64,000 nucleotides of DNA from Vulcanimicrobiota bacterium (GTDB taxonomy: Bacteria; Vulcanimicrobiota; Xenobia; Xenobiales; JADMJV01): NCBI GenBank assembly GCA_050250895.1, contig JBFWNU010000001.1, positions 3,044,891-3,108,890 of the forward strand, read 5' to 3'. The position numbers and the translations under genes were made by a program. The notes beneath the pieces are model-generated. The model saw only the letters and a program-made list of their open reading frames with translations. It did no database searches and had not been told where the DNA came from. Below are positions 6,661 through 54,907 of this stretch, piece by piece. Position 1 is the stretch's first letter. The number at the start of each line of letters is the position of its first letter.

Positions 6661-7085
6661 ACCGCCTCGGCCCCCTGGGTGCCGGTGCTGCTGCCCGATT
6701 TTTCGCCGCTGGGGTCGAAGGTCTGCCCGGGCTGTTGTCGTTGCCGGTCTTGACCGCCTCCCAGGGCGGTAGGCAGGTCGCGAGCCGCGGGCGACTTTGG
6801 CCAGTTGTTGGTCTGGACCCGCGAGCCCCAGGCCATGTGGTTATGCTTGGGGTCCAGCCGCTCTTGACTCATCGGTCGGGAGAGCGCCTCGACCACGGCC
6901 ATGGCGTGGGCCGAAGGTGGGCTCTGGGGCCGGCGAGCCTCCGGCGAGAGATGAGCCAGATCCTGCGGCCAGGTCGACTGGGGGGTGGGGGCCGGCGGGG
7001 GGGCCACGGCCAGCCCCCGGGCCTCCATCAGTTCTTCCCAGCGGCGCGGTCGCTCCTGATTGATTCCACTCAGATAGTTAGCCAC
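6651..7085 (-). CDS. Hypothetical low-complexity protein
   Basis: 144-aa ORF filling the intergenic gap; Pro-rich with a DLAHLSPEA motif; -10 TAAGCT 6 nt upstream of GTG. Confidence 0.6.
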   Translation of the reverse strand: MANYLSGINQERPRRWEELMEARGLAVAPPPAPTPQSTWPQDLAHLSPEARRPQSPPSAHAMAVVEALSRPMSQERLDPKHNHMAWGSRVQTNNWPKSPAARDLPTALGGGQDRQRQQPGQTFDPSGEKSGSSTGTQGAEAVQN

Positions 7086-7157
7086 CCCACCAGCTTAGCA
7101 GGCCCAGCCGGAGAATCTCTTGGAATTGTTACCGCGAGCTTGCCCGCGGCTGAACAT

Positions 7158-8183
7158 TTAGGGCAAGATGGCGAAGGCCCGGGCCGGAAAGCCCAGCCCT
7201 TTCTCGGGCTTAGGCCAGCTGACCACTAGCAGAGCCCCGGTGGGCGGCACCTGGTCGAGATTGGTCATCACCTCGACCTGCCAGTGACCGTGCTGCAAAA
7301 GCCAGGTTTCGGCCTCGAGGTTGGGCGTGTTGTCGGTATCGAGGGCTTCGTGGCCGTTGGCCGTAATGCCGCGCTGTTGGTAGAGAAAGCGGATGGCTTC
7401 GGGGGACCAGGCCGGAAAGGGGTGGCGGCGGAAACGGTTGGTGTTCCAGTCCTTCGACAGATCGGTGCGCAGGGCCGCAAAGCATCCTTCCGGCACTCGG
7501 CCGTGCTCGTTCTCCCACTCGAGAATGTCGTCCACGGTCAGTTCGTAGGCCGGATGGTCCGCCAGCTTGGGGGTGATGTCGAAGACCACCATGGGCAGGA
7601 TCATCTGCTCGATAGGAATCTCGTCCACGGTCTGGCCCTCGGCCGAAAAATGGGCGGGAGGATCGATGTGGGTGCCGTACTGGCCCACCAGCGAATAGTG
7701 GGTCGCGCGAAAGCCGTCTTTTTCGAGGCTATAGGCCCGTCCCGTCTTGGGGTCGGCGGCGGGTCGGAATTGGGACGGACCAAAGCCTTCCCAGACCGGA
7801 GTGGTGGGGCTGAAGCGGTGAGTAAGGTCGACCCACTTTCGGGATTTCAGCCAGCGGTAGGCCTCGGCCAGGGCGGCCTTCTCGACATCCGCCAGGCCGC
7901 CGCCGTTCACGACCTGGCTGTAGCCGCGCTCCTCGAGTTGGGCTTTGAGTTGGGCGGCTCGACGGCCGCTCTTGCAGTAGAGCAGGATAGGCCGGGCCTT
8001 CTCGGACGGCAGCACCTCGAGGTGCTCTTGCAGACGGTCGTGGGGCACGTTGATGGCCCCCTCGAAGTGGCCTTCGGAATATTCCTGGGGAGTGCGGGCA
8101 TCGATCACCAACTGGCCGCGCAGGACCGGCTGGGCCCAGGCCACCGTGTTCAGGCAAAGTAGAAAAATGAGTAACCGTTTCAC
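7158..8183 (-). CDS. Exported rhodanese + cyclase (kynurenine formamidase-like) fusion
   Basis: Signal peptide ending AWA; IDARTPQEY...GHFEGAINVP...LYCKSGRRA rhodanese; VDLTH, QYGTHIDPPAHF, EVMTNLDQVP, GFPARAFA cyclase. Confidence 0.85.
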   Translation of the reverse strand: MKRLLIFLLCLNTVAWAQPVLRGQLVIDARTPQEYSEGHFEGAINVPHDRLQEHLEVLPSEKARPILLYCKSGRRAAQLKAQLEERGYSQVVNGGGLADVEKAALAEAYRWLKSRKWVDLTHRFSPTTPVWEGFGPSQFRPAADPKTGRAYSLEKDGFRATHYSLVGQYGTHIDPPAHFSAEGQTVDEIPIEQMILPMVVFDITPKLADHPAYELTVDDILEWENEHGRVPEGCFAALRTDLSKDWNTNRFRRHPFPAWSPEAIRFLYQQRGITANGHEALDTDNTPNLEAETWLLQHGHWQVEVMTNLDQVPPTGALLVVSWPKPEKGLGFPARAFAILP

Positions 8184-8254
8184 GCCCTTGACTACGACCC
8201 CGCCCGGGGCCGTTCCTTGGGGGTGAACTCAGCTCGGACCAAGAAGTAGACGGA

Positions 8255-8857
8255 ATGAAGCCACCTGCGTTCTTGCCCTCCTTTTGCATCTTTCTGGTGC
8301 TGGACTTGCTGGGGATTGTGAGCATCCCGTTCCTGCTGGGGATCGATCCCAATCTGGCCATCATGGTGTTGCTGGCGTTGCTTTATCTCGTGCCCGCCCT
8401 GGCCAGCACGGCCGGTTGGAGCACCATCAACTGGATGAAAGAGCAAGCCGGAGACACGGGCTCCGGCTTGGCCCGGCTCATCGCCGGCAGCAGCCTGGTG
8501 TTCTTGCTTTGCGCCGTGCTGGTCACCGTGCTCGATGGTCAGCACAACCTGGGTGTGGCGCTGTTCTATATCTACTGCCTGATTCTGTGCCTGCGGCTGG
8601 CGCCGGGAGCGATCATCAACGTGGCCGTGGCCGCGCCTCTAGCCTTTATAGGCAAGAGCAAGCGAGCCCGTGTGGCCGCCCTGGTCGCCGGCCTGTCCAG
8701 TGGTGTGGGGTTGTGGTTGGTGCGTGAGATCTACGCGTCCAATAGCGGCCAGCAGAACCTGATGATGGCCCTCTTTATGGCCTTGAGCTTTGGCTACGGT
8801 CTGACCTGGGGAGGCGCTCTCAGCTGGGTGGCCGCCAAGATCCGTCAGCGAGGCTAA
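8255..8857 (+). CDS. Hypothetical integral membrane protein
   Basis: Multiple hydrophobic segments; abuts the next gene. Confidence 0.7.
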   Translation: MKPPAFLPSFCIFLVLDLLGIVSIPFLLGIDPNLAIMVLLALLYLVPALASTAGWSTINWMKEQAGDTGSGLARLIAGSSLVFLLCAVLVTVLDGQHNLGVALFYIYCLILCLRLAPGAIINVAVAAPLAFIGKSKRARVAALVAGLSSGVGLWLVREIYASNSGQQNLMMALFMALSFGYGLTWGGALSWVAAKIRQRG

Positions 8858-13082: not shown

Positions 13083-14347
13083 AAATCCGCTGGCTCGCGC
13101 TGCTCCTGGCCATCTGGACTGTGCCGGGGCTGGCGCAGGAGCGATTCTTGCAGCTCGAGACCGTCCCCCCCGAGGCTCAGGTGACGGTGTACTCACCCAG
13201 CCTTCCCACCGGCAAGATGGAGGGCAAGGAACTTACCCTGCCGGCGCAGGTGGGGTCCGTTACGGTCCGGGTTATTGCTCCAGGCTATCTTGCCCGGGAA
13301 CAAGACTTGCAGTTGTTGAGTCGCAATCAGCACGGGCCCAACAGCTGGGCCTTCACCATCGTACTCGAGCCTCAGGGAGTTCTCGGTCACTTGCGCCACC
13401 TGGTCCGGTACCGACCCTGGCTGGTGGCTCTCGGGCTGGGCGGGTTCGGCCTGCTGGGATTTGGCTACCACCGTCGCCAGAGCCACCGGCGCCTGACGGT
13501 GGAGCGCGAGAAGGAAGCCCTGCAACAATGTTATGACGAGGTCAATCCTGATCTCACGGGGAAACAGATCGACTCCTATCATCTACTCGAGTTGTTGGGC
13601 GAAGGCGGTTTTGCCCAGGTCTATAAGGTCCGCCACGTCGACTATGACGAGTATGCCGCCTTGAAGGTCCTCAAGGAGAAGGTGCTCGACGAGCGGTCAT
13701 GGCGACGGCTGGCTCGCGAAGCCAAGATAGGGACCCAGCTCGACCACCCCGGGGTGGTCAAGACGATGGCCTACGGCACCTACCGCGACCGGCCTTACCT
13801 GGTGATGGAACTGGCGGAAGGCCGGTCCCTCGAGAAGCTGGTAGAGCAACCCTTGCCGCTGGAAGAGGCCCTGACGATCTTTGCCGAGTTGTGCCAGGTG
13901 ATGGCCTACGCTCACGGTCAGGGCGTGATCCACCGCGACCTCAAGCCCGGCAACATTCTGGTGGGCCCGCAAGGCGTGAAGGTGTTGGACTTCGGGGTCG
14001 CTCGGCTGCGTTCGGACCTCAAGATCACGGCTCAGGGCGAAGTGGTCGGTACGCCCGACTACATGTCGCCCGAGCACATCCAGGGTAAGCCCGATGCCCG
14101 CTCGGACATCTATTGCTTGGGTTTGATCCTGTACGAGATGTTGACCGGGCAGGCCGCTTACGAGGGTACGACTCCGGCCCGGGTGATGGCCATGCATCTA
14201 CACGCGCCGCCGCCCAAGGTCAGGGCGGTGCGTCCCGAACTTCCCTCCGAGGTCGATCAGCTACTGGAGGCTTTGCTAGCCAAGCGGCCCAAGAATCGTA
14301 TCCAGACCGTGGAAGAGGTGCTCTTTCGTCTGGCGGACATCGTTTAA
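13079..14347 (+). CDS. Membrane Ser/Thr protein kinase with N-terminal PEGA-like extracellular domain
   Basis: Signal peptide, ETVPPEAQV, TM segment, LGEGGFAQVY, AALK, HRDLKPGN, DFG, GTPDYMSPE, DIYCLG. Confidence 0.93.
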   Translation: MKIRWLALLLAIWTVPGLAQERFLQLETVPPEAQVTVYSPSLPTGKMEGKELTLPAQVGSVTVRVIAPGYLAREQDLQLLSRNQHGPNSWAFTIVLEPQGVLGHLRHLVRYRPWLVALGLGGFGLLGFGYHRRQSHRRLTVEREKEALQQCYDEVNPDLTGKQIDSYHLLELLGEGGFAQVYKVRHVDYDEYAALKVLKEKVLDERSWRRLAREAKIGTQLDHPGVVKTMAYGTYRDRPYLVMELAEGRSLEKLVEQPLPLEEALTIFAELCQVMAYAHGQGVIHRDLKPGNILVGPQGVKVLDFGVARLRSDLKITAQGEVVGTPDYMSPEHIQGKPDARSDIYCLGLILYEMLTGQAAYEGTTPARVMAMHLHAPPPKVRAVRPELPSEVDQLLEALLAKRPKNRIQTVEEVLFRLADIV

Positions 14348-14429
14348 CAACTCGTTTACCGAGCCCCGCCTCGGTAAGGCTATGCTCAGGCCGGTCTCCA
14401 AAGCTCTCTCACCACTTTGGAGGACGACC

Positions 14430-17365: not shown

Positions 17366-17494
17366 AGTCTGAAGATATCGGACTCGACTGGTAGCGGGTT
17401 TTGGATCTTCTCCAAAGATTTGTTACAGGTTTGTTAAAAAATGGCGAGATGTTTCCACAAGGAACCACCCTTTCTCTCTTGAAGCGCACTGGCC

Positions 17495-36458: not shown

Positions 36459-36534
36459 CTTTTAAGGGTTCGTTCAGGCAACGAGCATAGCATCCGAGTG
36501 GGTCCTAGCCAGGCGAAGAATGCCAGGTGGTGTC

Positions 36535-37825: not shown

Positions 37826-38248
37826 TCAGGCGGCCGAGGCCAGACCGTAGAGTTTTTCGAGCAAAGTGCGCAGCTTGACGGCTGCCTCGGCGGGTTTGAA
37901 TGGCTTCACGATAAAGTACTTGGCGCCCGCATCAATGGCCTTCTTGACGATGTCCTGGTGACCCAGGGAGCTGGCCATCACGATATTCGAGGCGGGGTCG
38001 ATGGACTGCAGTGCCTGCACGACTTCCACGCCACCCATGTTGGGCATCACGATGTCACAGGTTACCAGATCCGGGCGCGTCTTTTTGTAGAGTTCCACGG
38101 CCTGGATTCCGTCGCTGGCTTCGCCGACGACCTCGCCTCCCAGTAGTTTCACGGTAACCCGAAGGGCTTTGAGAATAAAGTCCGAGTCGTCTACCAGCAG
38201 AAACCTGAATGCCGATCCGTCCTTTTTGCGAACCTCCAGGTTGGACAT
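37826..38248 (-). CDS. cheY: CheY-like single-domain response regulator
   Basis: LLVDDS, DLVTCDIVMP, MASS, FIVKPF; divergent from cheA. Confidence 0.85.
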   Translation of the reverse strand: MSNLEVRKKDGSAFRFLLVDDSDFILKALRVTVKLLGGEVVGEASDGIQAVELYKKTRPDLVTCDIVMPNMGGVEVVQALQSIDPASNIVMASSLGHQDIVKKAIDAGAKYFIVKPFKPAEAAVKLRTLLEKLYGLASAA

Positions 38249-38378: not shown

Positions 38379-40934
38379 GTGAACGAATTTGATTCCGAGA
38401 TGCTGACCGACTTTCTGTTGGAAGCTTGTGAACAGCTCGAGATTCTCGATCAGGAGCTGGTCAAACTCGAAGACGCGCCTGAGGACCGAGATTGTCTCAA
38501 TGTCATTTTTCGGGTGATGCACACTCTCAAGGGAGGCGCGGGCTTCCTGGGCCTGGATTGCCTCGAGGGGGTGGCCCACAAAGCCGAGACCGTACTTGAC
38601 ATGCTGCGCGACGGTCGGCTGCAGGTCGACCGCCATGTGATCGATGTCTTGCTCGAGTCGGCGGACGCCATCCGTCAGGTGGTGGCTAGCCTCGAGAACG
38701 ACCAAACCGAGGGAGAACTCGATGTTGGCTCCCTCAAAAGGCGGCTCGACGCGGTAGCAGCCCAGGAGGGTCCGCCCCCCGCGGCCGTGTTCGATGAGGC
38801 TGACGAGGCCGCCGTGGCCAAAGCCCTGGAAATGGCCCAGCTCGAGGACTTTCAGGCCTCGCTGATGGCGGCCCTCGAGGGGTCCCCAGCCTCGCTCCCG
38901 CCGACGCCGGCTGAGGTGGCTGCCGAGAAGTCGGCCAAGAAGGAGGGCGGCGGCAACCAGGTACGGGTGAAGGTCGAGTTGCTCGATAAGCTGATGAACC
39001 TGGTCGGCGAACTGGTGCTTTCTCGCAACCAGATTCTGCAGTTGGCCGGCGGCCTCGAGAGCGTCCAGCTCAACTCGGCCTGCCAGCGCATCAACCTGGT
39101 CACCAGCGAACTGCAAGAGCACATCATGCAAACCCGCATGCAGCCTATCGGAACCGTGCTCAAGCGCTTTCCACGCCTGGTCCGCGATCTGGCCGCCCAG
39201 ACCGGCAAAGAGGTCAGGCTGACTATTGAGGGCCAGGATACGGGACTTGATCGCACCGTGGTCGAGGCCATCAAGGATCCCTTGACCCACATCCTGCGCA
39301 ACTCGATCGACCACGGCCTCGAACCGCCCGAACAGCGAGTGGCAGCAGGCAAGCCACCCCAGGGTAACATCCACATCCGAGCCTATCACGAAGGCGGCCA
39401 GGTCACCATCGAGTTCATCGATGACGGTCGCGGCATCGATCCGGCCAACATTCGCGAGAAGGCCATCGCGCGGGGTGTGCTCACCCGCCAGGAAGCCGAC
39501 ACCATGTCAGACCGCGACCTGTTGAGCATCCTCTTCCGGCCGGGCTTTTCGACCGCGGCCGAAGTCACCAACCTCTCGGGTCGCGGGGTTGGCATGGACG
39601 TGGTCAAATCGTCCACCGAAAAAATTGGTGGTTCCATCGACCTGCAGTCTGCAGTCGGCCAGGGAACCACCGTCAAGATGCGGATCCCGCTCACACTGGC
39701 CATCATCCCAGCCTTGATCGTCGAGACCTCGGGCGAGCGCTACGCCATTCCCCAGGTCAACCTGCAAGAGCTGGTGCGGCTGGAGGGGACCCATACGATG
39801 GATCGGCTCTATGGGGCTGAGGTCTACCGTCTTCGGGGGCAGCTCCTGCCGCTGTTGAGACTGCGCGACCTGTTGGGGCTGTCGCCGGCCGAAGAGTCGA
39901 GCGAGACCAACATCGTCGTGCTCAATGCCGACACCCTGACCTTCGGACTCATCGTAGACGGAGTCTGCGACACCGAAGAGATCGTGGTCAAGCCGCTGGG
40001 CACCGACCTGAAACGACTGCAACTCTATGCCGGCGCCACCATCATGGGCGACGGTCGCATCGCCCTGATCCTGGACGTGGGTGGACTGGCCCGCGCGGCT
40101 GAGCTACGGGTAGACGATCAGCGCCAGACCGAGCGCGAGGCGGTCGAGCAGAAGGCCCGCCGGGCCACTCAGGCCCTGTTGATGTTCAACCTGGGTGACG
40201 ACGAGCGGTTCGTGATTCCCCTGGCACTGGTTTCGCGTCTCGAGGAGTTCGAACGCTCGCGCGTCGAGACCATCTCGGGCCAGCAAGTGGTCCAGTACCG
40301 GGGCAAGTTGCTGCCCTTGATCGACCTGGCCCGCCAGCTTGGATGCGCTGGCGGCATGCACCGAGACGTGCTCCACGTGCTGGTGTTCGAGCGCGAGGGT
40401 CGGGCCCTCGGCCTGATGGTCGAGCAGATCCTCGATGTCATCGAAGACGAGCTGGTCATCGGCCGTACCGGGGCCGAGGGTTTCGGAGTGTTGGGCTCAG
40501 GCATCTTGTGCGGCAAAGCCGTGTCGGTGGTGGATCTCGAGGCCGTGATCTCTTCGGTTCAACCCGATTGGCTGTCGTCTCGCAACGGCAACGGCAAGCG
40601 CTCGCGGCGCGTCCTGTTGGCGGCTGCTCCCAGCTTCACCAGCGCTTTGATTCGTTCCCACCTCGAGACCGACGGCCATCGGGTCTATCAGGTCGAGCAA
40701 CTCGAACTCGCCTTCTCTCGGGTCCAGGACGAGGCCTTCGATTGCTTGCTGTTGGACCCGGCTCTCAGTGGCAGCCGTCGCTACCTCGAGCGCCATCTCG
40801 AGCTGCCTTCGCGAGTGCCGGTGCTGGCGCTCGACAACGGGCAGCGCCTGCCAGGCGTCGAGATGGTGGCAGACACTTCTCGAGATGGGCTGCTGCGCCG
40901 CCTCGAGTCGATTTGTGAAGGAGTGCCGGCATGA
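38379..40934 (+). CDS. cheA: Chemotaxis kinase CheA (Hpt, dimerisation, HATPase, 2x CheW, degenerate REC)
   Basis: IFRVMHTLKG, HILRNSIDHG, DDGRG, GFSTA..SGRGVGMDVV, IPLTLAI. Confidence 0.96.
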   Translation: MNEFDSEMLTDFLLEACEQLEILDQELVKLEDAPEDRDCLNVIFRVMHTLKGGAGFLGLDCLEGVAHKAETVLDMLRDGRLQVDRHVIDVLLESADAIRQVVASLENDQTEGELDVGSLKRRLDAVAAQEGPPPAAVFDEADEAAVAKALEMAQLEDFQASLMAALEGSPASLPPTPAEVAAEKSAKKEGGGNQVRVKVELLDKLMNLVGELVLSRNQILQLAGGLESVQLNSACQRINLVTSELQEHIMQTRMQPIGTVLKRFPRLVRDLAAQTGKEVRLTIEGQDTGLDRTVVEAIKDPLTHILRNSIDHGLEPPEQRVAAGKPPQGNIHIRAYHEGGQVTIEFIDDGRGIDPANIREKAIARGVLTRQEADTMSDRDLLSILFRPGFSTAAEVTNLSGRGVGMDVVKSSTEKIGGSIDLQSAVGQGTTVKMRIPLTLAIIPALIVETSGERYAIPQVNLQELVRLEGTHTMDRLYGAEVYRLRGQLLPLLRLRDLLGLSPAEESSETNIVVLNADTLTFGLIVDGVCDTEEIVVKPLGTDLKRLQLYAGATIMGDGRIALILDVGGLARAAELRVDDQRQTEREAVEQKARRATQALLMFNLGDDERFVIPLALVSRLEEFERSRVETISGQQVVQYRGKLLPLIDLARQLGCAGGMHRDVLHVLVFEREGRALGLMVEQILDVIEDELVIGRTGAEGFGVLGSGILCGKAVSVVDLEAVISSVQPDWLSSRNGNGKRSRRVLLAAAPSFTSALIRSHLETDGHRVYQVEQLELAFSRVQDEAFDCLLLDPALSGSRRYLERHLELPSRVPVLALDNGQRLPGVEMVADTSRDGLLRRLESICEGVPA

Positions 40935-41371
40935 GCAAGATTCAACAATATTGCACCTTCTATCTGGGCGGCAACTGTCTGGGCGTAGATGTCTTGCGGG
41001 TGCAAGAGGTCCTGCGCAGCCAGGAAATGACGCCGGTTCCCCGGGCTCCTGAGGACGTCTTGGGGCTGATCAACCTGCGCGGGCAGATCGTGACGGCCGT
41101 CGACCTCAAACGGCGACTGTCGATGGAAAGCAAGGTCGGTGAGCAGTCGATGAACGTCATCGTGCGCACCCCCGAGGGTCCCGTGAGCTTGTTGGTCGAT
41201 TCTATCGGCGACGTGATCGAGGTAGACTCGAGCACCCTCGAGTCGACTCCCGACACGGTGGCCGCCAGTGCCCGGCGATTTCTGGCCGGGGTCCACAAAC
41301 TCGACGGCGCCCTGCTGGCGGTGCTCGACGTCGACAAACTTTGCGCATCAACCAACGAGGTCGGCTGCTAA
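40931..41371 (+). CDS. cheW: Chemotaxis adaptor CheW
   Basis: VQEVL..TPVPRAP..GLINLRGQIV. Confidence 0.95.
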   Translation: MSKIQQYCTFYLGGNCLGVDVLRVQEVLRSQEMTPVPRAPEDVLGLINLRGQIVTAVDLKRRLSMESKVGEQSMNVIVRTPEGPVSLLVDSIGDVIEVDSSTLESTPDTVAASARRFLAGVHKLDGALLAVLDVDKLCASTNEVGC

Positions 41372-41404
41372 GGCGCCACCCGCATTATTCAACCAGGAGG
41401 AAAG

Positions 41405-43321
41405 ATGGCTACAAAAACAGCGAAAAGCAACGGGAGCCCGCAACACGGAATGCCGGTCGAGGCGGCTCTAGAGGAGGCCAAGGCCAATCAGGCTGCTCTG
41501 ATTCGCGTGGTGGAGAAGATTACCGAGGCTAGCAATCGTCGCGAGGTGATTCAGTTTGCGCTCGACGAAGTGCGGGAGGCTTACGGCTGGGCTTACGGGT
41601 CCTTCTGGGAACACGACCCCAACCGCGACGCCCTGGTGTTTTCTCAAGACTCGGGGACGGTCAACCGCGAGTTCAAGAAGGTGACCGAGTCGGCCTCGTT
41701 TCGTCGAGGCGAGGGGCTCTCGGGAAGAGCCTGGCAGAGCGAGGCTCTGGTCTTCGTGGAGGACATCGGTGAGGTCTCGGATTGCTGTCGGGCCCCTGTT
41801 GCTCGCGAGGCCGGCGTCGTCTCTGGTCTGTGCTTTCCCATCATCGTCAAGGGCCGGGTCATGGGGACGATGGACTTCTTCGTGACCCGGGGAATCGAGT
41901 TGTCGGCCCAAAGACGGGCTGCCCTCGATATGATCGGCCGCCTGGTCTCGACCACCGTCGAGCAGAGGGGTGCCTACGAGCGACTCCACGGGATGGTCGA
42001 AAATTCTCCCACCAACATCATGACGGTAGACCTCGACCTGACGGTAACCTACATGAATCCGGCCTCGATCCGGACCTTGACTCGGCTCGAATCCCATCTG
42101 CCCTGCAAGGCCAAGGCGATCTTGGGTCGCAGCATCGATATCTTTCACAAGCATCCCGAGCATCAACGCCGATTGCTGGCCAATCCCGACAACCTTCCAC
42201 ACAAGGCCCGAATTCGGGTTGGCCCTGAACATCTGGATCTGCTGGTCAGCGCCATGCGCAATGACCTGGGCGAGTATGTGGGCGCTATGCTCACCTGGGA
42301 ACTGATCACCGAGAAGGTCCAACTCGAGGAACGTGAGCGAGAACGCCAGGAGGCCGACCGTCGCACCGCCGAGGAGCTGCAACAAAAGGTGTCGTCCATC
42401 CTCGAGACGGTCCAAGCCTGCAGCCGCGGCGACCTGACTGTGGAAGTGCCCGTGCGGGGCAACGACCCTATCGGTCAGGTCGGTCAGGGGCTAGAAGACT
42501 TCCTTACCCAGCTGCGCAACAGCCTGCGCGAGATTGGCGGAAAGGCCACCATCCTGACCAGCTCGTCCTCCGACTTGAGCAATCTGGCCGGCAAGATGGC
42601 CACCTCGGCCGAAGACTCTTCGGTCCAGGCGACCTCGGCTTCGGCTGCCGGAGAACAGGTCAACCAGAACATCCACACGGTGGCCTCGGCCACTGAAGAG
42701 ATGGCCAGCTCCATTCGAGAGATCTCCAAGAATGCAGGCCAGGCCGCCCGAGTCGCGGCCAACGCCGTGGCCGTGGCCGAGTCGACCAACGACACCATCG
42801 CCAAACTGGGCGAGAGTTCGACCGAAATCGGCAAAGTTATCAAGGTCATCACCTCTATCGCCCAACAGACCAACCTGCTGGCCCTCAACGCCACCATCGA
42901 GGCGGCTCGGGCCGGCGAGGCCGGGCGCGGTTTTGCGGTGGTAGCCAACGAAGTCAAAGAGCTGGCCAAAGAAACGGCCCGGGCTACTGAGGACATCTCG
43001 CGCAAGATCGAGACGATCCAGGAAGACAGCTCGGGTGCTGTCCGGGCCATCGCCGAGATCACCGACATCATCAATCAAATCTCCGACATCGCCAACAGCA
43101 TCGCGGGAGCGGTCGAAGAACAATCCTCCACCACCTCCGAAATCAGTCGCAATGTGGCCGAAGCTGCACGCGGCAGTAACGAGATCACTTCCGCTTTGAG
43201 CCAGGTCGCCTCGGCGTCCGAGAACAGTCGTGCGGGTGCTACTGACACCCTCGCGGCCTCGCGGTCGCTGAGCCAGTTGGCCAACGAGCTCCAGGACCTG
43301 CTGGGGCAATTCCAGACCTAA
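41405..43321 (+). CDS. Soluble methyl-accepting chemotaxis protein (GAF, PAS, HAMP, MCP signal)
   Basis: [12 protein letters not shown]; [15 protein letters not shown]; [34 protein letters not shown]; no TM. Confidence 0.95.
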
Positions 43322-43327
43322 ACCCCC

Positions 43328-43358
43328 GCCGGGCCCGGGCCGGCGACCCGGGCCCGGC
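43328..43358. other. Strong GC hairpin between mcp and cheY
   Basis: GCCGGGCCCGGG-N7-CCCGGGCCCGGC, no immediate U-tract. Confidence 0.6.
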
Positions 43359-43381
43359 ACAATTTTGGAAGGACCCCGACC

Positions 43382-43774
43382 ATGAAGATACTGGTAATCG
43401 ACGACTCCCGATTCGTTCGCAAACAGATCATCAAGTTTCTCGACGACTTCAGCGCCAGCATCTATGAAGCCGCCGACGGCCAGGAGGCCCTGGATGTCCA
43501 CAAAGTCCAGCAGGTCGACCTCATCCTGACCGACTGGAACATGCCGGTAAAGACCGGGCTGGAGCTGGTGCAGGAACTCAAAGAAGGTCACGTCGAGCGC
43601 GACCCGCCCATCTTGATGATTACCACCAACAATCAGCAGGATGCGATCGTGGCCGCCATCGAGGCGGGTTGCGACGACTTCCTCATGAAACCTTTTGACC
43701 GCGAAGACCTGCACCTGAAGCTTCGCTCGATGTTGGGTGATGACCACCCCATCTTTGGAGGGTGTCATGCCTAG
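43382..43774 (+). CDS. cheY: Chemotaxis response regulator CheY
   Basis: ILVIDDS, LTDWNMP, LMITT, LMKPF. Confidence 0.92.
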   Translation: MKILVIDDSRFVRKQIIKFLDDFSASIYEAADGQEALDVHKVQQVDLILTDWNMPVKTGLELVQELKEGHVERDPPILMITTNNQQDAIVAAIEAGCDDFLMKPFDREDLHLKLRSMLGDDHPIFGGCHA

Positions 43775-44819
43775 TGTTCGTGTGTTGATTGTGGATGACT
43801 CGTCGCTGTTTCGGCGCATCCTCACCACCGTCTTTCGCGCAATCCCCGGGGTCGAAGTGGTGGGCAGCGCGTCCAACGGAGCCGAGGCCTTGCGTCTGGT
43901 CGAGAGCTTGAAGCCCGAGCTGGTTTCCTTGGACCTCGAGATGCCCGAGATGGACGGTCTCGAGACCCTGCGCCGGCTGCGCCTTCTCGACACGCGCTCC
44001 AAGGTGCTGATGGTCAGCGCTCACACCACCCGGGGAGCACGCCGCACTATCGAAGCCCTTTGTTTGGGAGCCGAGGACTTCATCACCAAGCAAAATGCCC
44101 AGGGGGACGCCAGCACCAACCTGGAAGCCCTCAGGGCCCAGCTCGAGCCCAAGGTCGAACAGCTATTTCCTCGCCAGGCCGGTGTCCGGGCTCAGGTCGC
44201 GCGGCGCCCACCTCTCCCCGGTGCCCCCAAGAAGGCCGTGGTGATCGGCGTGTCGACGGGCGGACCAAACGCCCTCTCCGAGGTCTTCTCGACCCTTCCG
44301 GCCGGTCTACCGGTGCCCATCCTGATAGTCCAACACATGCCGCCGACTTTCACCCGCATGCTGGCCGAGCGCCTGTCGGCCAAAGGAAAGATTCCCGTCA
44401 GCGAGGCTCGCGAAGGCGAGCCGATTCTCAACGGACATGCCTACATCGCTCCCGGAGACTTCCACCTCGAGATAGCCGGCGACGCCCGTCGCCCACTGGT
44501 GGCGCTCAGCCAGGGCCCTCGTGAGAACAGTTGCCGTCCGGCCGCGGACGTGCTCTTTCGCTCGGCCGCCCGCGTCTACGGCCGGGACTGTCTGGGTGTG
44601 GTGATGACCGGAATGGGCTCGGACGGCTGTCTGGGAGCCCGCGAGATTCAACGGGTTGGCGGCGAGGTTCTGATTCAGAACGAGGCCACCTGCGTGGTCT
44701 ATGGCATGCCCCGGGCCGTCGCCGAGGCGGCCATTGTCCATGAAAGCTATCCCCTCGACGAGCTGGCCTCGGCCATTACCGAAAGAGCCACCAGGAGGAC
44801 CCAATGGCGCACAGCGTAA
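43767..44819 (+). CDS. cheB: Chemotaxis methylesterase CheB
   Basis: REC domain plus IGVSTGGP, VQHMP, RPAADVLF, MTGMGSDG, VYGMP. Confidence 0.95.
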   Translation: MPSVRVLIVDDSSLFRRILTTVFRAIPGVEVVGSASNGAEALRLVESLKPELVSLDLEMPEMDGLETLRRLRLLDTRSKVLMVSAHTTRGARRTIEALCLGAEDFITKQNAQGDASTNLEALRAQLEPKVEQLFPRQAGVRAQVARRPPLPGAPKKAVVIGVSTGGPNALSEVFSTLPAGLPVPILIVQHMPPTFTRMLAERLSAKGKIPVSEAREGEPILNGHAYIAPGDFHLEIAGDARRPLVALSQGPRENSCRPAADVLFRSAARVYGRDCLGVVMTGMGSDGCLGAREIQRVGGEVLIQNEATCVVYGMPRAVAEAAIVHESYPLDELASAITERATRRTQWRTA

Positions 44820-45631
44820 GACATGAAGACTATGGATTTCTGTGCCGGGTGCTCCACCGCGAGGCCGGCATCAGCCTGGGCGACGATAAGAAATACCTGG
44901 TGGAAGCCCGCCTGGGTGAACTGTGCCGCACCATGGGAGTGGGCAGCCTGGACCAACTAGTATCGCGAGTGCGTGAGGGCCAGGATCCGACCACCCTCAA
45001 GCTGGTGGTCGAGGCGATGACTACCAACGAGACCTCGTTCTTTCGCGACCAGGCTCCCTTCGAGGCTTTACGCGACCGCATCTTGCCTGGCTTGCTGGCG
45101 GCCCGCGCGGCCACCCGGCGGCTGCGGATCTGGTCGGCTGCCTGCTCGACCGGGCAAGAGCCGTATTCGCTAGCCATTACGTTGCTGGACCATTTTCCTC
45201 AACTCCAGGGCTGGGATGTCTCGATCCTGGCCACCGATCTGGCCGAGCAAAAGGTGCTCGAGCGGGCTCAACAAGGCCGCTTCACCCAGCACGAAGTGAA
45301 CCGCGGCCTGCCCGCTCGGATGTTGCTCAATCACTTTGAACAGCGCGATGACGCCTGGTTTGTCAAAGAGCCGACCCGACGGCTGGTCAAGTTCCAGAAA
45401 GTCAACCTTCTGAACATCCCTCGCTGGCTCGGCGAGTTCGACCTGGTCCTGTGTCGCAACGTCCTGATCTACTTCGATGTCGAGACCAAGCAGCAAGTCC
45501 TGGGCCGAATCCATAGTCATCTGGCCAAAGACGGCTATCTGATGATCGGAGCCTCCGAGATCCTCTTCGGAGTCACCGAAAGCTTCCGGCGCGAAACCTA
45601 CGGACGCACCAGCTACTACCTTCGCGACTGA
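44804..45631 (+). CDS. cheR: Chemotaxis methyltransferase CheR
   Basis: TTNETSFFRD, IWSAACSTGQEPYS, CRNVLIYFD. Confidence 0.96.
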   Translation: MAHSVRHEDYGFLCRVLHREAGISLGDDKKYLVEARLGELCRTMGVGSLDQLVSRVREGQDPTTLKLVVEAMTTNETSFFRDQAPFEALRDRILPGLLAARAATRRLRIWSAACSTGQEPYSLAITLLDHFPQLQGWDVSILATDLAEQKVLERAQQGRFTQHEVNRGLPARMLLNHFEQRDDAWFVKEPTRRLVKFQKVNLLNIPRWLGEFDLVLCRNVLIYFDVETKQQVLGRIHSHLAKDGYLMIGASEILFGVTESFRRETYGRTSYYLRD

Positions 45632-45634
45632 CGT

Positions 45635-45972: not shown

Positions 45973-46818
45973 TTACCGGTCGGGGGACGCTGCCTCGCGG
46001 AGGAGTTCGGCCTTGGTGACCTCGCCCATGGCCAGGGCTTTCACCTTGGGGTCTTTCCAGCTATTGGGCTCGGCGCCGGTGATTTTGTGGACGCCTTTCT
46101 CCATTTTGCGCCAGAAGTTGGTGCGGGTCAAAAGCGGGTTGAACTTGCCGTTGACGATGCAATAGTACTCGTCGAAGGGGTCGGTGTGGTGCTTGGCATG
46201 GTTGGCCGAAGTCTGCGAGATGCCGAGCTTTTGCAGCACCCTGGCCGTCGTCGGCGGATTGGACATGTGTGACCAACGATGAGAGGCCTGGGCCAGCACC
46301 GCGCCTCCGGTGAAGGCCAGTCCGGCGGCCGCCAGCATGGGGTGAGGAGTGAAGATGGCCAGAGCCGCCATCGGGCCCACCATGGCCGTGGCCGCGGGGG
46401 CCACGTTTTCCCAGACACTGACGTGATCCATGCTGGGTGTGTCGTGGTGGTTTTGGAATTCTTTAGCGATACCCCCTACCAACGGGGTGTTCTCGTTGGG
46501 ATAGTTGTCGATGGCCCAGTGGAAGACACCGCTGGTGAAGTCGGCGGCCATCAGGCCGGCGGCAGCGCTGGCCACCACTCCGGCTCCCAGGGCTACTTTC
46601 GCGGCTACCCCCGGGGCCGAGGCGACCTCGGCGGCGATGCGGGCGGCGGCGATGCCACCGGCCAGCACACAACCCGCGCCGGTGATCTTGGCCACGGTCG
46701 CTCGGCGCGAAGTCTGGCCCGGCGAGAAGGTCTCCTGGGGTTCGGCCGGCTGCTCGGGGCGAGCAGGAACGGCGGTCCGCGACGCGGGGGTCGCGCTGGT
46801 GAATTGTGAAATTCGCAT
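45973..46818 (-). CDS. carF: CarF/TMEM189/FAD4-family lipid desaturase with low-complexity leader
   Basis: ADFTSGVFHWAID, FQNHH, SHRWSH, HAKHH, YCIVNG; start ATG 46818. Confidence 0.85.
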   Translation of the reverse strand: MRISQFTSATPASRTAVPARPEQPAEPQETFSPGQTSRRATVAKITGAGCVLAGGIAAARIAAEVASAPGVAAKVALGAGVVASAAAGLMAADFTSGVFHWAIDNYPNENTPLVGGIAKEFQNHHDTPSMDHVSVWENVAPAATAMVGPMAALAIFTPHPMLAAAGLAFTGGAVLAQASHRWSHMSNPPTTARVLQKLGISQTSANHAKHHTDPFDEYYCIVNGKFNPLLTRTNFWRKMEKGVHKITGAEPNSWKDPKVKALAMGEVTKAELLREAASPDR

Positions 46819-46994
46819 TGGTCTCTCTCCGTTGGACCTCTCGTGGAGGTCTCTATCTGTCACCAGAGTAGCCCTTCCCAGCTTAAGGAAGACTGAAAAC
46901 GATGCTGATGCGCCATTGTGTAACGAAAAGTCCACGAAAATTCAATCTTGGCAACGCAATGGCAAGATCTCGGGTGGCGTGGTATGGTGTGAGT

Positions 46995-47433: not shown

Positions 47434-48786
47434 ATGCGAGCTTTTCCCAAAGCCAAGACCAGAGCGGTGGTGATTGGAGCCGGTTTCGGCGGCCTGAGAG
47501 CTGCGCGCGAGTTGATGCGGGCTCGCCGCGACGACCTGGAGGTGGTGGTGATCGACAAGCATAACCATCACACCTTTACCCCGTTGCTCTATCAGGTGGC
47601 CACCAGCGGCCTGAGCCCCTCGGACATTTGCTTTCCCATCCGCGAGCTGGCCCGCGGACGCCGGGATGTCGAAGTGGTGATGGCCCGCCTGAGCGCGGTC
47701 GACTATGGCCAGCGCCGCCTGGTTCTTGACGATGGTCAACTGACCCTCGACTACGATTATCTGGTATTGGCCCTGGGGGGCAAGACGTCTTATTTTGGCC
47801 AGGACCAGTGGCGGGACCGGACTTTCGCTCTCAAGAGCGTGCCTGAGGCCGAGGCTTTGCGCGACCGAATTCTCTCGGCCTTCGAGCAGGCCGAGCAGCA
47901 CGACGACCCCGAGCAGCGAGCTCGTTTGCTGACCTTCGTCATTATCGGCGGGGGGCCGACCGGCGTCGAACTGGCCGGAGCCATCGCCGAGTTGCGCAGC
48001 CGGGTGCTCGATGACCAGTTTCGACGGTTTGACAGCGAGCAGGCCCGAGTGGTTTTGCTCGAAGGCGGCCAGCGCCTGCTCAAGTCGATGTCAGAGCGGG
48101 CCGGCAACTACGCCAGAGAGCGACTGCGGGCCATGGGAGTCGAGGTCCACCTGGGCGAACTCGCCCAGGAGGTAAGTCCCGGCCAGGTGGTCACGGCCGA
48201 GCGACGACTCGAGGCCGCCACCGTCATCTGGGCGGCCGGGGTGGGAGGCTGCGAGCTGGCGCCGCGCCTGGCCAGCGAGGATCAGCGAGACCGAGGGGAT
48301 CGCGTCAAGGTCGAGAGCGACTTGCGCCTGACCGGCCACAGCCGAGTCTATTGCGTTGGTGACATGGCCCATTTTGAGCACGATTGCACCTATGACGGCA
48401 AGCAGCTGCCCGGCCTGGCTCCGGTCGCCATGCAACAGGGCCGGCACGCGGCCCGCAACATCCTGCGCCAGCTCGATGGCCAGCCCACGCGCGACTTTCA
48501 CTATATCGACAAAGGCTCGATGGCCACGGTGGGACGCACCGCCGCCGCCGCCGATCTGCCGTCGGGCCGCAATCTGAGCGGTCCAGCCGCGTGGCTGGCC
48601 TGGCTCGGGGTCCACCTCTATTATCTGGCCGGCCTGCAGAATCGGGTGGTCGTGTCGATCCGATGGCTGTGGGCGTATCTCACCTGGCGCTGGGGCTCGA
48701 GGCTGATTCGGGCTTCCCAGGTTAGCCCCGCCCGTGGTCCTTCCCCCGGTGAATTGCCCAGCGAGCGGTCGGCCGCTGGCTTGTGA
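47434..48786 (+). CDS. ndh: Type II NADH dehydrogenase
   Basis: VVIGAGFGG, FTPLLYQVAT, IIGGGPTGVELAG, LAPVAMQQG, DKGSMATVGR. Confidence 0.93.
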   Translation: MRAFPKAKTRAVVIGAGFGGLRAARELMRARRDDLEVVVIDKHNHHTFTPLLYQVATSGLSPSDICFPIRELARGRRDVEVVMARLSAVDYGQRRLVLDDGQLTLDYDYLVLALGGKTSYFGQDQWRDRTFALKSVPEAEALRDRILSAFEQAEQHDDPEQRARLLTFVIIGGGPTGVELAGAIAELRSRVLDDQFRRFDSEQARVVLLEGGQRLLKSMSERAGNYARERLRAMGVEVHLGELAQEVSPGQVVTAERRLEAATVIWAAGVGGCELAPRLASEDQRDRGDRVKVESDLRLTGHSRVYCVGDMAHFEHDCTYDGKQLPGLAPVAMQQGRHAARNILRQLDGQPTRDFHYIDKGSMATVGRTAAAADLPSGRNLSGPAAWLAWLGVHLYYLAGLQNRVVVSIRWLWAYLTWRWGSRLIRASQVSPARGPSPGELPSERSAAGL

Positions 48787-48836
48787 CGATTTTTTGACGC
48801 AGCTTTGGCACAGTATGTCCAACGGAGGATTACCAA

Positions 48837-49151
48837 ATGAACATCAACGCATTCAAAGCTTTTCAATCGATCACGAATTCGCGAGCAGCCACCACGCCGG
48901 CCACTCCCGCAGAGCCTCAGGCCAACGCCCAGCCTCAGGATGGTTTCACCCCCAGCGAGCCCCAGGAGAAAGAGACCTTGCTTGGTCGCACCCTGAAAGG
49001 CGCTTGCATCGGTGGAGCCGTCGGCCTGATCGCGCCGGGTATCATCGTGCCGTTGGTTGGCTTTGCGGCTTCCCCCATCACCGGTCCGCTTGGCTTCGTG
49101 CTCGGCGCCTACGCCGGAGCCGTCAGCTACGAGCGCGGCGGGGCCGAATAG
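48837..49151 (+). CDS. Small glycine-zipper protein with low-complexity leader
   Basis: GGAGG RBS; MNINAF...PQDGFTPS leader, then GxxxG helices. Confidence 0.75.
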   Translation: MNINAFKAFQSITNSRAATTPATPAEPQANAQPQDGFTPSEPQEKETLLGRTLKGACIGGAVGLIAPGIIVPLVGFAASPITGPLGFVLGAYAGAVSYERGGAE

Positions 49152-52556: not shown

Positions 52557-52598
52557 CCATCCAGGCTACTTCTCGCCCCTCAAAGGAAGCTGAACGGC

Positions 52599-54206
52599 CT
52601 AGGCCAGCTCGATTTCGAGGTCGCGATTGCGCATCATGCAGCGTCCCGAGCGCGCCAGCACCTTGCCGACGAACTGCTCGGGCACGTCGACCAGGGTGTA
52701 ACGCTGCTTGATCTGGATGGCTCCGACAGTGGGGCCGGGGATGCGGGCTTGCTTGGCCAGCGTGGCCACCACCTCGCCCGGACGCAACCCGTCGTTCTTG
52801 CCCACATTGAGCTTGAGCCGAACCATGCCGGCTTCGTGAGACTTCTTGGTGTGAGTTCGGAGGTGGCGGCTCGACCGCCTGGGTTCGGGCATTTTGACCT
52901 CAGAGATGGCCGCGATGGGACGCTGTTTCTCGCGCGCTCTCGAGAGTTTGAGGGCGGCCGCCGCGATCGCTTTGAGCTCGAAGCCCTCGGCCAGCAGTTC
53001 GTCGACCATCTCCAACTCGCGACGAAAGCGAGCACGCCGCACCCACATGGTGACACCCTCCATGACCTGCCGATCCCGGTGGGCCATGATCTCGTCGCGG
53101 CTGGGGACTTCGCAGCGTTGGGCTTTCTGCTTGGTGTAGCTCTCGATGCGGCGCAGCAGTCGCTCTTCGCGCGGCGTCAGCAGGGCGATGGCGATGCCGG
53201 TCCGACCGGCCCGCCCGGTGCGGCCGATGCGGTGGACGTAGCTCTCGGGCTGCTGGGGCAGATCGAAGTTGAAGACATGGGTGAGGTGGTCGATGTCGAG
53301 GCCGCGGGCCGCGATGTCGGTGGCTACCAGCACCTTGATCTTCTCGGCCTTGAAGCGTTCCAGCACCTGCTCACGCGCCTCCTGGCTGAGGTCTCCGTTA
53401 AGCACCTCGGCTGGGTAGCCGCGACTCATGAGTTCGTTGGCCAGGGTCGCCGTGCGGGCCCGGGTGCGGGCGAAGATCAGCGCGCTGGTGATGTCCTCGA
53501 CCTCGAAGATGCGGGTGAGGGCGGCCACCTTGTCCTGTTCGTTGACCACATAGCAACGTTGCTCGATGGCCGCCACCGCCGGTTGGGAAGGCGTGATCGA
53601 GACCGAGGCGGGTTGGCGCAGATAGCGACCGGCCAGCCCTCGGATCTCGTCGGGAAGGGTGGCCGAGAAGAGAGCCGTCTGGCGGTCCTGGGGCAGAGCG
53701 GCCAGAATCGTTTCGACCTCGTCGAGAAAGCCCATGCTGAGCATCTCGTCGGCCTCGTCGAGGACGACCGTTCGCACCCCCTCGAGTCGCAGTACCTGTT
53801 GCTGTAGCAGGTCCAGCAAACGACCGGGGGTGCCCACCACCACCCGGGCTCCGCGTTTGAGGGCCTTCACCTGGACCGGGTAGGGCTGACCGCCATAGAT
53901 GGTCACGGTGGGCACGTCGCCCCCCAGGGCCTCGAAGGCCTCGTTCACCTGCAAAGCAAGCTCTCGGGTCGGGGTCACCACCAGGGCCTGGACCCGGGCC
54001 ACCGCCTCGAGGCTCTGCAGGATGGGCAAAGCGAAGGCGGCCGTCTTCCCGGTGCCGGTCTGGGCTTGCCCGATGACGTCTTTTCCGGCTAGCATCAACG
54101 GGATGATGCCGGCCTGGATGGGCGTGGGTTCTTGATACTCTAGGCGCGCCACCGCCTCGATGAGGTTTGGGGCGAGGCCCAACTCTTCAAATTTCGACAA
54201 AGTCAT
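52599..54206 (-). CDS. deaD: DEAD-box RNA helicase with DbpA RNA-binding domain
   Basis: PTPIQ, AQTGTGKT, PTRELA, TPGR, DEAD, SAT, ARGLD, HRIGRTGRAG; C-terminal LNVGKNDGLRPG. Confidence 0.93.
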   Translation of the reverse strand: MTLSKFEELGLAPNLIEAVARLEYQEPTPIQAGIIPLMLAGKDVIGQAQTGTGKTAAFALPILQSLEAVARVQALVVTPTRELALQVNEAFEALGGDVPTVTIYGGQPYPVQVKALKRGARVVVGTPGRLLDLLQQQVLRLEGVRTVVLDEADEMLSMGFLDEVETILAALPQDRQTALFSATLPDEIRGLAGRYLRQPASVSITPSQPAVAAIEQRCYVVNEQDKVAALTRIFEVEDITSALIFARTRARTATLANELMSRGYPAEVLNGDLSQEAREQVLERFKAEKIKVLVATDIAARGLDIDHLTHVFNFDLPQQPESYVHRIGRTGRAGRTGIAIALLTPREERLLRRIESYTKQKAQRCEVPSRDEIMAHRDRQVMEGVTMWVRRARFRRELEMVDELLAEGFELKAIAAAALKLSRAREKQRPIAAISEVKMPEPRRSSRHLRTHTKKSHEAGMVRLKLNVGKNDGLRPGEVVATLAKQARIPGPTVGAIQIKQRYTLVDVPEQFVGKVLARSGRCMMRNRDLEIELA

Positions 54207-54216
54207 AACCTTTCCT

Positions 54217-54249
54217 AAAAGAGAGAACCCGGGATGGACCCCCGGGTTC
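54217..54249 (-). terminator. Rho-independent terminator just upstream of deaD
   Basis: GAACCCGGG-N7-CCCGGGTTC followed by TCTCTTTT on the minus strand. Confidence 0.65.
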
Positions 54250-54274
54250 CCCATTCGCCTGACGGCTCTCTGAT

Positions 54275-54751
54275 CTAGTTGACCAGTTCGAGCCCACGGT
54301 TAGAGAGCAGATAGCCGCTGTACGAGGCGGCCGCCCCCATGGCGGCGGCCGGCAAGAAGCCTGTATAGGTCAGTCCGGCCATCGTGCCGGCGGCGGCTCC
54401 GACCACTCCTGCGCCGACGGCCAGATAGGTCGAGTAGCTCAGGTTCTCGTTGCCGAGCACCCGGTCAAGCACGCGTCCAGCTACCATGCCGGCTGCGGCT
54501 CCGACGATTCCGCCTGCCATGGCGCCGGCTCCGGCCGCGGCCAGGCCATCGGCGGCTCCTGCATAGACACCGGCCCCCAGACCTGTCAGGATCCCGACCT
54601 GGCGCCAGACGAACCGCTGGGTGGCCTGGATCGAGTGGCAGTCACAGTTGGCCTCTTCAGCCTGCGGCTGGGGCGTCTCTTCGGCAGCAGCCTTGACGGC
54701 AGGGGGCGTGGAGGTGAGCGTGGGCGTAGCACGGTAGGCTGAAATCAGCAT
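54275..54751 (-). CDS. Glycine-zipper protein with low-complexity leader
   Basis: GAGGAG RBS; MLISAYRATPTLTSTPPAV leader; Gly/Ala-rich helices. Confidence 0.75.
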   Translation of the reverse strand: MLISAYRATPTLTSTPPAVKAAAEETPQPQAEEANCDCHSIQATQRFVWRQVGILTGLGAGVYAGAADGLAAAGAGAMAGGIVGAAAGMVAGRVLDRVLGNENLSYSTYLAVGAGVVGAAAGTMAGLTYTGFLPAAAMGAAASYSGYLLSNRGLELVN

Positions 54752-54907
54752 GGGAGTTCTCCTCTATGTTTGGGGATACCCGAACCTATTCGATCCAGGT
54801 GTCGGGTTTGTTGCCGGGGTGTTGCCGAATGGACCGACAGGGGGAGTGAAGCCTGGCGCGAACGGTGCTTCGTGCCCCTGGATTTCTTTGCCGGTCAGCG
54901 CCCCCTG

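Follow-up and report, generated by a model that had tools for sequence, protein, structure and literature searches.

Direct repeats of TTCAG define a lineage-wide class of promoters upstream of mostly orphan genes in a Vulcanimicrobiota bacterium

Introduction

Do short direct repeats that precede scattered and seemingly unrelated genes mark a common set of promoters, and what kind of protein would read them? The question is raised by a stretch of 64,000 nucleotides (the window, always meant at its full length) in the genome of a Vulcanimicrobiota bacterium (assembly GCA_050250895.1, contig JBFWNU010000001.1; genome G000, contig C1, positions 3044891–3108890). A sequence-only reading of the window had picked out by eye eight pairs of degenerate pentamers with a period of 11 bp and proposed that one activator of the OmpR/PhoB family controls the adjacent genes. 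All eight strings are present, at the positions and on the strands listed in Table 1. They do not represent a single motif, but the best of them belong to a real, sharply defined, and lineage-wide promoter class (class A), which is of a known mechanistic kind and unusual in its scale.

The assembly comprises 9.5 Mb in 17 contigs and has a G+C content of 63%. Genes were called with our own dicodon-based caller, which yielded 8366 genes (90.5% coding); those within the window are consistent with their Pfam domains. Upstream regions were defined as intergenic spacers of at least 40 nt (n = 4970; 692 kb in total), and dinucleotide shuffles of these regions served as background (10 shuffles for the count of pentamer pairs). 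The position weight matrix (PWM) of class A was built by iteration and cut at a false discovery rate of approximately 5%. A scan of the window against Rfam at gathering scores matched no family.

Sequence and placement of the class A signature

There is abundant evidence for a non-random arrangement of the repeats. The pair TTNAS-N6-TTNAS occurs in the upstream regions 267 times in sense and 161 times in antisense orientation, compared with 29.4 ± 6.9 times in the shuffles. When the spacing is varied from 0 to 24, the excess is found at N6 only; other spacings yield 15–56 copies (19–32 in shuffles), with minor bumps at N15 and at N17, the latter (a 22-bp period) being mild (56 vs 27). An alignment of the intergenic matches reveals a hexamer, TAnnnT, at a constant distance of 10 nt from the second pentamer: it is present 109 times at N10 (0.0 in shuffles), once at N9, and four times at N11. 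The resulting consensus spans 32 bases, TTCAG-g-n-T-T-y-T-TTCAG-N10-(c)TAgnCT, and conservation ends with the motif positions; the information content is close to zero from −30 to −2 and past +32.

Among the 4970 upstream regions, 341 pass the cut of the PWM and 218 reach a score of at least 20, which no shuffled region attains. The whole genome, searched on both strands, contains 524 matches that score at least 12 and 292 that score at least 20. The placement of the 368 matches with scores of at least 16 is strongly biased: in spacers between co-directional genes, 162 point toward the downstream gene and 8 away from it, 160 are located in divergent and 11 in convergent spacers, and only 27 fall inside called genes, which cover 8.57 Mb. 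The sequence-only reading is therefore right about dispersed promoters whose head-to-tail half-sites have an 11-bp period and end 10 nt before a TAnnnT box; their number is very large, and the frequency of the motif is far above that in shuffled DNA.

A canonical −35 element is missing from class A, where the corresponding positions read A-G-g-n-T-T, although the −10 box is present. A distinct canonical class, TTGAC-N18-TAnnnT, exists in the same genome (83 vs 2). None of the titles and abstract openings covered by our literature search describes a TTCAG direct-repeat motif.

Leaderless transcripts

Measured from the start of the motif, the distance to the start codon peaks sharply at 38 nt, which places the half-sites at −38..−34 and −27..−23 if the start codon is taken as +1. 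At the 137 strict intergenic sites, the called start is located 6 nt after the −10 box in 30 cases and 7 nt after it in nine; at 20 further sites, an in-frame open start precedes the called one and lies 5–7 nt after the box (6 nt in 18 of them). In about half of the cases, the start codon thus lies 6–7 nt past the −10 box, and 173 genes with a site scoring at least 16 are leaderless in frame. Because their start codons follow the −10 box at exactly this distance, these mRNAs are predicted to be leaderless, and the start codons provide indirect but position-exact evidence for a functional −10 box in TAnnnT and for transcription from the predicted place. The interval between −10 box and transcription start, which the sequence-only reading had named as a check, is borne out in this way.

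Leaderless mRNAs appear to be common in this genome, as indicated by the 382 called starts that are preceded by TAnnnT at N6, compared with approximately 50 at neighboring offsets. In this set, to which class A contributes at most about one-fifth, 58% of the promoters have a G at −14, 48% have a C at −13, and 48% have a C at position 5 of the −10 box; 277 of the 382 lack both TTGAC and a strict half-site.

Downstream genes and their shared N-terminus

The genes downstream of class A sites are indeed scattered and unrelated. Most of the 80 best-scoring ones are orphans (55 without a Pfam family at E ≤ 1e-4), and they are enriched for a shared, non-hydrophobic N-terminus. The remainder encode unrelated enzymes and envelope proteins, in which an extension often precedes the known domain. 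Among them are a glycerol-3-phosphate-oxidase-like protein, a CarF-like desaturase, a caleosin, a flavin reductase, two alpha-amylases, three giant InhA-like MAM proteins, an endonuclease I, a P450, a SecA paralog, a LysM protein, a PilZ protein, and others. Several families encoded in this genome (RUS/DUF647, the CarF/TMEM189-like desaturases, bestrophin, and caleosin) are best known from eukaryotes; some of their members are located behind class A sites (Table 1).

The shared N-terminus (the leader) is linked to the promoter. Among the leaderless genes of class A, 109 of 173 products start with M-x-[I/V], but only 53 of 304 among leaderless genes without the motif (p = 1.5e-23). Other traits of the leader are a frequent Pro at position 5, a region rich in Arg and Ala at positions 13–20, an overall richness in Pro and Ala, and a low Leu content (8.6% vs 13.5%). 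A hidden Markov model trained on one half of the motif-linked genes lacked power, recovering 8 of the 72 genes that had been held out (E ≤ 0.1), and was replaced by position-specific residue counts and a simple rule that is blind to the promoter. The rule asks for M-x-[I/V], for the absence of a hydrophobic 12-mer from residues 1–30, and for at least 11 Pro plus Ala in the first 45 residues. When applied to uncorrected starts, the rule selects 194 genes, 55 of which have a site, compared with 374 of the other 8172 genes; hence, the link between promoter and leader is strong but not exclusive.

A relationship of the leader to FlgM was considered and rejected. None of the 80 N-termini matches the NCBIfam models of FlgM at E ≤ 1, and the Pfam model of FlgM is significant only for the true FlgM of the genome. 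The resemblance that is left (M-x-V/I ... D-x-V-x-L-S) is by eye only.

The SecA paralog behind a class A site (L051; C12:63314–66898) has 1194 amino acids and an N-terminal extension of 170 residues. Extra copies of SecA (2–6) are common among the large-genome relatives but occur also in the motif-poor genera g8 and g9, which argues against a strict link between SecA paralogs and the motif.

Distribution among related genomes

The same signature is found in related families. Counts in relatives are based on the exact pattern TTCAG-N6-TTCAG-N10-TAnnnT, with the reversed pattern as control; in G000, there are 52 copies of the former and none of the latter. The exact pattern is present in all 15 genomes of the same family (3–46 copies), in all five genomes of the sister family (25–56 copies), and in all three genomes of another family of the same class (4–9 copies). 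In a small-genome family of the same order, it occurs in only 2 of 19 genomes, with one or two copies each. Elsewhere in the phylum sample (201 genomes), most counts are 0–2, the exception being one large-genome family with 1–7. The leaderless arrangement recurs in G018, a member of the sister family, which has 14 leaderless sites among 31 unselected ones (eight of the 14 start with M-x-[V/I]), and in G040, where three of nine sites are leaderless.

A predicted replacement of the −35 element

Class A probably represents a dedicated promoter type in which the −35 element is replaced by a site for a winged-helix dimer (OmpR/PhoB/SARP type) and which drives roughly 300–500 transcription units, mostly of lineage-specific orphan genes. 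In the mechanism that we envisage, TAnnnT would serve as the −10 box of a polymerase of the sigma-70 type, and transcription would begin 6–7 nt further downstream, in very many cases at the start codon itself, giving rise to leaderless mRNA. In place of a normal −35 element, the two head-to-tail half-sites, one helical turn apart, would be bound by a side-by-side dimer of a winged-helix activator, which may recruit or adapt region 4 of sigma.

Such head-to-tail repeats at a distance of one helical turn are a hallmark of tandem winged-helix dimers, and regions 2 and 4 of sigma span 16–19 nt. The half-sites of class A precede the −10 box by 10 and 21 nt, neither of which is a distance that region 4 could span, and they are repeated at one helical turn; a SARP- or PhoP-type replacement of the −35 element is therefore favored. 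The spacing agrees with that of OmpR-, PhoB-, and SARP-type activators, as the sequence-only reading had recognized. We infer the binding of a dimer to the repeats, the activation, and the protein family of the activator from this arrangement.

Likeness to known promoter systems

A close counterpart is found in Streptomyces. Its SARP promoters have repeats with a period of 11 bp, the 3′ one of which stands 8 bp away from the −10 box, and the afs box is centered at −29.5 and overlaps a poor −35 element, which in afsS reads TTCAGC and occupies −38..−33; the SARP dimer touches region 4 of sigma (PMC10936776). Class A shares the 11-bp direct repeats with these promoters (the afs box of AfsR and the overlapping PHO boxes of PhoP), for which a 22-bp period is the other option. 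The heptamer plus 8 bp of SARP promoters fits the pentamer plus N10 of class A base for base, and the class A box is likewise located near −29.5 in place of the −35 element. Also encoded in G000 are proteins that combine a winged helix with BTAD. However, class A comprises hundreds of promoters, whereas those of Streptomyces are described as few and pathway-specific, and its targets are mostly orphan genes rather than antibiotic clusters. The module is C-terminal in G000, behind a receiver or STAND-type domain, but N-terminal in the SARPs of Streptomyces (PMC10936776). The likeness of class A to SARP promoters is one of geometry, and binding is predicted. If the SARP-module family reads the box, the "sigma adaptation" of the SARP type would be global, not pathway-specific, and would occur outside Actinomycetota.

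The pho box of PhoB in E. coli consists of two head-to-tail repeats with an 11-bp period, located 10 bp upstream of the −10 box, which replace the −35 element, and PhoB contacts region 4 of sigma. Class A has the same arrangement of repeats, but the Pfam matches of its 80 best-scoring genes lack the phosphate-uptake and phosphatase families typical of the Pho regulon, and the class A regulon is many times larger. The PIP box, through which HrpX controls type III secretion genes and effectors in Xanthomonas and Ralstonia, likewise combines a directly repeated pentamer with a −10-like box at constant distance; its spacing, however, is N15, compared with N6 in class A, and HrpX is an AraC-type regulator. 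Any link of class A to type III secretion is hypothetical. The tandem repeat of the PmrA element, too, has an 11-bp period and lies just upstream of the −10 box. In Legionella and Coxiella, this response-regulator element is common to numerous scattered secretion substrates and predicts new effectors (PMC2701608). It differs from class A in its half-site and in the number of genes (dozens vs hundreds); moreover, the PmrA-controlled substrates belong to a known secretion system and have a C-terminal signal, whereas the leader of class A is N-terminal and any export route putative.

The 32-nt signature predicts, from sequence alone, several hundred co-regulated and mostly unannotated genes in an uncultured lineage with large genomes. 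It fixes the transcription starts and, in about half of the cases, the true start codons; the corrected starts mend gene models and define the real N-termini of the leader-bearing proteins. As a defined DNA bait, the box also provides an experimental handle on the role of the leader and on its controller.

Candidate regulators

The genome encodes 19 classical OmpR-type regulators, two of which belong to operons behind weak sites (scores 16.6 and 14.5), with one gene between site and regulator. It also encodes 29 proteins with a full SARP module (winged helix plus BTAD), 24 of which have a receiver domain. These 29 proteins, with the module at their C-terminus and, in the 24, the receiver at the N-terminus, are the leading candidates for readers of the repeats. 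If they are the readers, many inputs would converge on one promoter class.

BTAD matches number 32 in G000, 4–24 in the two motif-rich families, nine in G040, and 1–3 in the motif-poor family. All 10 BTAD proteins tested have this domain at the C-terminus, and nine of them match also Trans_reg_C (E ≤ 0.001), the other (L137) having BTAD only. The module is preceded by a receiver domain in six of them, by a STAND ATPase with TPR in two, by an HD domain in one, and by nothing recognizable in one. A conserved "S..R" is present in what is, by analogy, presumed to be the recognition helix. One regulator with this inverted architecture is encoded at C1:3041281–3043692, approximately 1.2 kb before the start of the window.

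A more far-reaching possibility, which we regard as doubtful, is that all of the approximately 29 paralogous regulators, with a C-terminal SARP module and receiver, STAND, or HD inputs, read the TTCAG repeat and jointly switch on several hundred leaderless genes, whose common leader would target their products to an undescribed route of export or sorting. Such a route could involve either of the two type III export apparatuses of flagellar type, paralogs of the FlhA C-terminal domain, or the SecA paralog in the regulon. If true, this uncultured lineage would possess a "secretome operon without an operon" that is self-contained.

Alternative explanations

Several observations weigh against a −35 replacement by a winged-helix activator. 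None of the 38 SARP-module matches has been assigned a class A site, and none of the 29 genes that match Trans_reg_C has one assigned to itself. The OmpR-type regulator at C3:281648, the one behind the site scoring 16.6, is disfavored as the reader; its phyletic pattern does not match that of the motif, since orthologs at ≥65% are confined to the genus of G000 and the sister family, and the remaining genera of the family reach no more than 55–58%, the same as the motif-poor family. The phyletic correlation of BTAD proteins is weak because their numbers scale with genome size like those of ordinary response regulators. All gene starts rest on the dicodon-based caller, every transcription start is deduced from the position of a start codon, and the related genomes are non-independent samples. 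Finally, class A and the TTGAC-N18 class have unlike −10 boxes. G at position 3 (0.60 vs 0.23) and C at position 5 (0.66 vs 0.23) are more frequent in class A; the TTGAC-N18 class has a TG extension, which is absent from class A, and reads TAtaAT, with A at position 5 in 54%.

This difference in the −10 box (TAGnCT, without TG) keeps a rival alive in which a dedicated alternative factor of the sigma-70 family, alone or with an adaptor, reads TAgnCT together with the TTCAG repeats, making class A a sigma regulon. We consider this unlikely. The very large size of the regulon, its all-or-none distribution of PWM scores (at least 20 in many upstream regions and in none of the shuffles), and a search for activators that found none with a site would agree with it, but the half-sites are outside the span between sigma regions 2 and 4, and a direct repeat at one helical turn indicates a tandem dimer. 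Moreover, the general set of 382 leaderless promoters shares the G/C-rich −10 box, including the frequent C at position 5 and G at −14, so that this flavor is not unique to class A. Still less probable is that the repeats are the operator of a repressor placed over the −35 region of otherwise constitutive promoters that have a −10 box only. The site overlaps the footprint of the polymerase, and many promoters of this genome apparently lack a clear −35 element (277 of the leaderless set); nevertheless, repressor sites usually tolerate variable placement, whereas the distance to the −10 box in class A is fixed to the base, as is typical of activators that touch the polymerase. The joint occurrence of promoter and N-terminal leader might reflect the duplication of a cassette or dispersed repeat with the signature at its front end, that is, common descent instead of selection for binding. 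This is highly improbable because nothing is conserved beyond the defined positions, the spacer bases are free to vary in every listed copy, the consensus is the same across three families, and the downstream proteins are unrelated. Hardly any weight can be given to an artefact of a degenerate pentamer picked by eye. The pooled pentamer of the sequence-only reading (KYNAS-N6-KYNAS) is found 126 times in the window, compared with 101 times in shuffles of the whole window, and half of the eight sites lack class A support; for class A, however, an artefact is refuted by the genome-wide shuffles and the reversed-pattern controls, and the tight TTNAS form of the pentamer is strongly non-random throughout the genome.

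Sites in the window and further repeat classes

The eight sites of the window (Table 1) pool at least three classes of half-sites (TTCAG, TTWACA, and GGCAAC), which speaks against a single regulator and a single motif for all of them. Two (36462 and 52594) are strong and two (46897 and 48783) plausible members of class A; the other four are without class A support. Yet leader-like N-termini are encoded by five of the genes singled out by the sequence-only reading (14430, the RUS-like and CarF-like genes, 48837, and 54751), so that its biological intuition is better than its motif definition.

Table 1. Repeat sites and related features of the window (positions refer to the window)
Feature	Position	Strand	Remarks
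Class A promoter, TTAAG-N6-TTCAG-N10-TAGCAT	36462..36493	+	PWM score 20.8; canonical, exact geometry
Class A promoter, TTCAG-N6-TTGAG-N10-TAGCCT	52563..52594	-	PWM score 22.6; canonical
Half-sites TTCAG-N6-TTAAG, −10-like TACTCT at N11	46865..46897	-	both half-sites perfect
Degenerate class A-like site, GTGAC-N6-TTGAC-N10-CACAGT	48783..48814	+	PWM score 12.5; marginal, near threshold
Class B repeat, TTAACA-N5-TTTACC	14344..14359	+	overlaps stop codon of Ser/Thr kinase gene
Class C repeat, GCAAC-N6-GCAAC-N21-TAGGTT	54783..54825	-	before 158-aa gene 54275-54751
TTAAC-N6-GTAAC	17422..17437	-	fits no class; best PWM score nearby 6.5, in another register
TTCAG-N6-GCAAG-N6-GTAAC	7128..7154	-	unsupported, fits no class; best PWM score nearby 7.2, in another register
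Eukaryote-type families	36520-37824, 45973-46818, 54872-55750		L013 elsewhere

The RUS/DUF647-like gene behind site 36462 matches Pfam UVB_sens_prot, starts with an ATG at 36520 or 36535, and ends at 37824; from the internal Met, its product has a leader-like N-terminus (MVVINPRSAARG...). Site 52594 is followed by a leaderless gene whose GTG start at 52556 is exactly 38 nt from the start of the motif. Its product of 811 amino acids belongs to no Pfam family, and its relatives among 41 related genomes are limited to two matches in the same genus, one of them with a site scoring 14.8 just upstream, and to one paralog, which has its own class A site (score 24.8); a search of the genome_contigs collection yielded no homologue. 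Site 46897 has the N11 spacing, which is not enriched (4 vs 109 at N10). It is located 79 nt before the gene of a CarF-like desaturase (45973–46818) whose product begins with a typical leader (MRISQFTSATPASRTAVPARPEQPAEPQETFSPG), and a paralogous desaturase elsewhere in the genome has a top-scoring class A site. The gene behind site 48783 (48837–49151) encodes 104 amino acids, which begin with the leader-like MNINAFKAFQSITNSRAATTPATPAEPQ...

Site 14344 is the sole match of class B in the window. The downstream gene at 14430 encodes a leader-like N-terminus (MRIHNGFTPAAP...MDQITLGS), and a weak class A-like site (score 15.0) is located at 14374–14405. Site 54825 has no class A match with a PWM score of at least 8. 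Site 17437 is on the strand opposite to the gene at 17495 to which it had been assigned. That gene had been read as encoding a LysM protein but has no LysM match at E ≤ 1e-5, and its N-terminus (MRQAFRRYLVVFLALCLSRTTFAQE) resembles, by eye, a classical signal peptide, contradicting the claim that all of the genes lack Sec signal peptides. The product of 6651–7085, which follows site 7154, has an N-terminus that is not leader-like.

Repeats of the same period are not restricted to TTCAG. Among exact-pentamer repeats with gaps from 0 to 15, a gap of 6 stands out (1942 vs 826 in shuffles). At this gap, TTCAG accounts for 60 pairs (0.25 in shuffles), TTACA for 20, TTAAC for 17, GGCAA for 16, GCAAC for 14, and TCAAG for 10 (each vs ≤0.75). 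The half-sites of the eight window sites thus are not of one type, and the classes differ in their geometry relative to the −10 box. Class B (gTTWACA-N5-gTTWACA) has 81 copies in the genome, 76 of them intergenic, and no fixed distance to a −10 box; among other places, copies precede C1:1475737, C1:1466500, and C1:1476513, at a second flagellar-type operon. The CtrA box (TTAA-N7-TTAAC) has the same spacing of half-sites as class B, which likewise precedes genes of a flagellar-type operon but belongs to another phylum and lacks a fixed −10 distance. Class C (GGCAAC-N5-GGCAAC) has 36 copies in the genome, 20 of them intergenic, including site 54825. As at this site, TAnnnT is found at N21 in 4 of 14 upstream pairs of class C, which suggests that in some members with TAGGnT 21 nt downstream, the site is located one helical turn further upstream than in class A.

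Flagellar-type export and other loci

The main flagellar region (C1:545–600 kb), which encodes flagellin and FlgM, contains no class A matches. The second, compact operon of flagellar-type export genes is located outside the window (C1:1458932–1476156) and comprises, in this order, FlgB, FlgC, FliE, FliF, FliG, FliH, FliI, FliJ, a lytic transglycosylase, FliK, and one FlgE/F/G-like protein, followed by FliM, two FliN, FliO, FliP, FliQ, FliR, FlhB, and FlhA; it contains no flagellin, motor, or FlgM gene. Many of the motif-rich genomes encode a second full-length FlhA, but none of the 19 motif-poor ones does. The association of FlhA with the motif is not strict, however, because G020 (97% complete, with 54 exact sites) has only one FlhA. 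In addition, eight stand-alone proteins of G000 match only the cytoplasmic C-terminal (substrate-docking) domain of FlhA (e.g., C6:529281–530666 and C1:2473655–2476609); two of the eight have class A sites upstream (scores 17.9 and 12.8).

The window also contains a complete chemotaxis operon (38379–45628, plus strand) that encodes CheA, CheW, a methyl-accepting chemotaxis protein with GAF and HAMP domains, CheY, CheB, and CheR; a gene for a single-domain receiver (37826–38248) is located on the opposite strand. The best matches of the DbpA-type DEAD-box helicase (52599–54206, minus strand) outside the lineage are metagenome-assembled genomes of Chloroflexota (49–59% identity); the best 80 matches, from which close relatives may be left out, include no Eremiobacterota.

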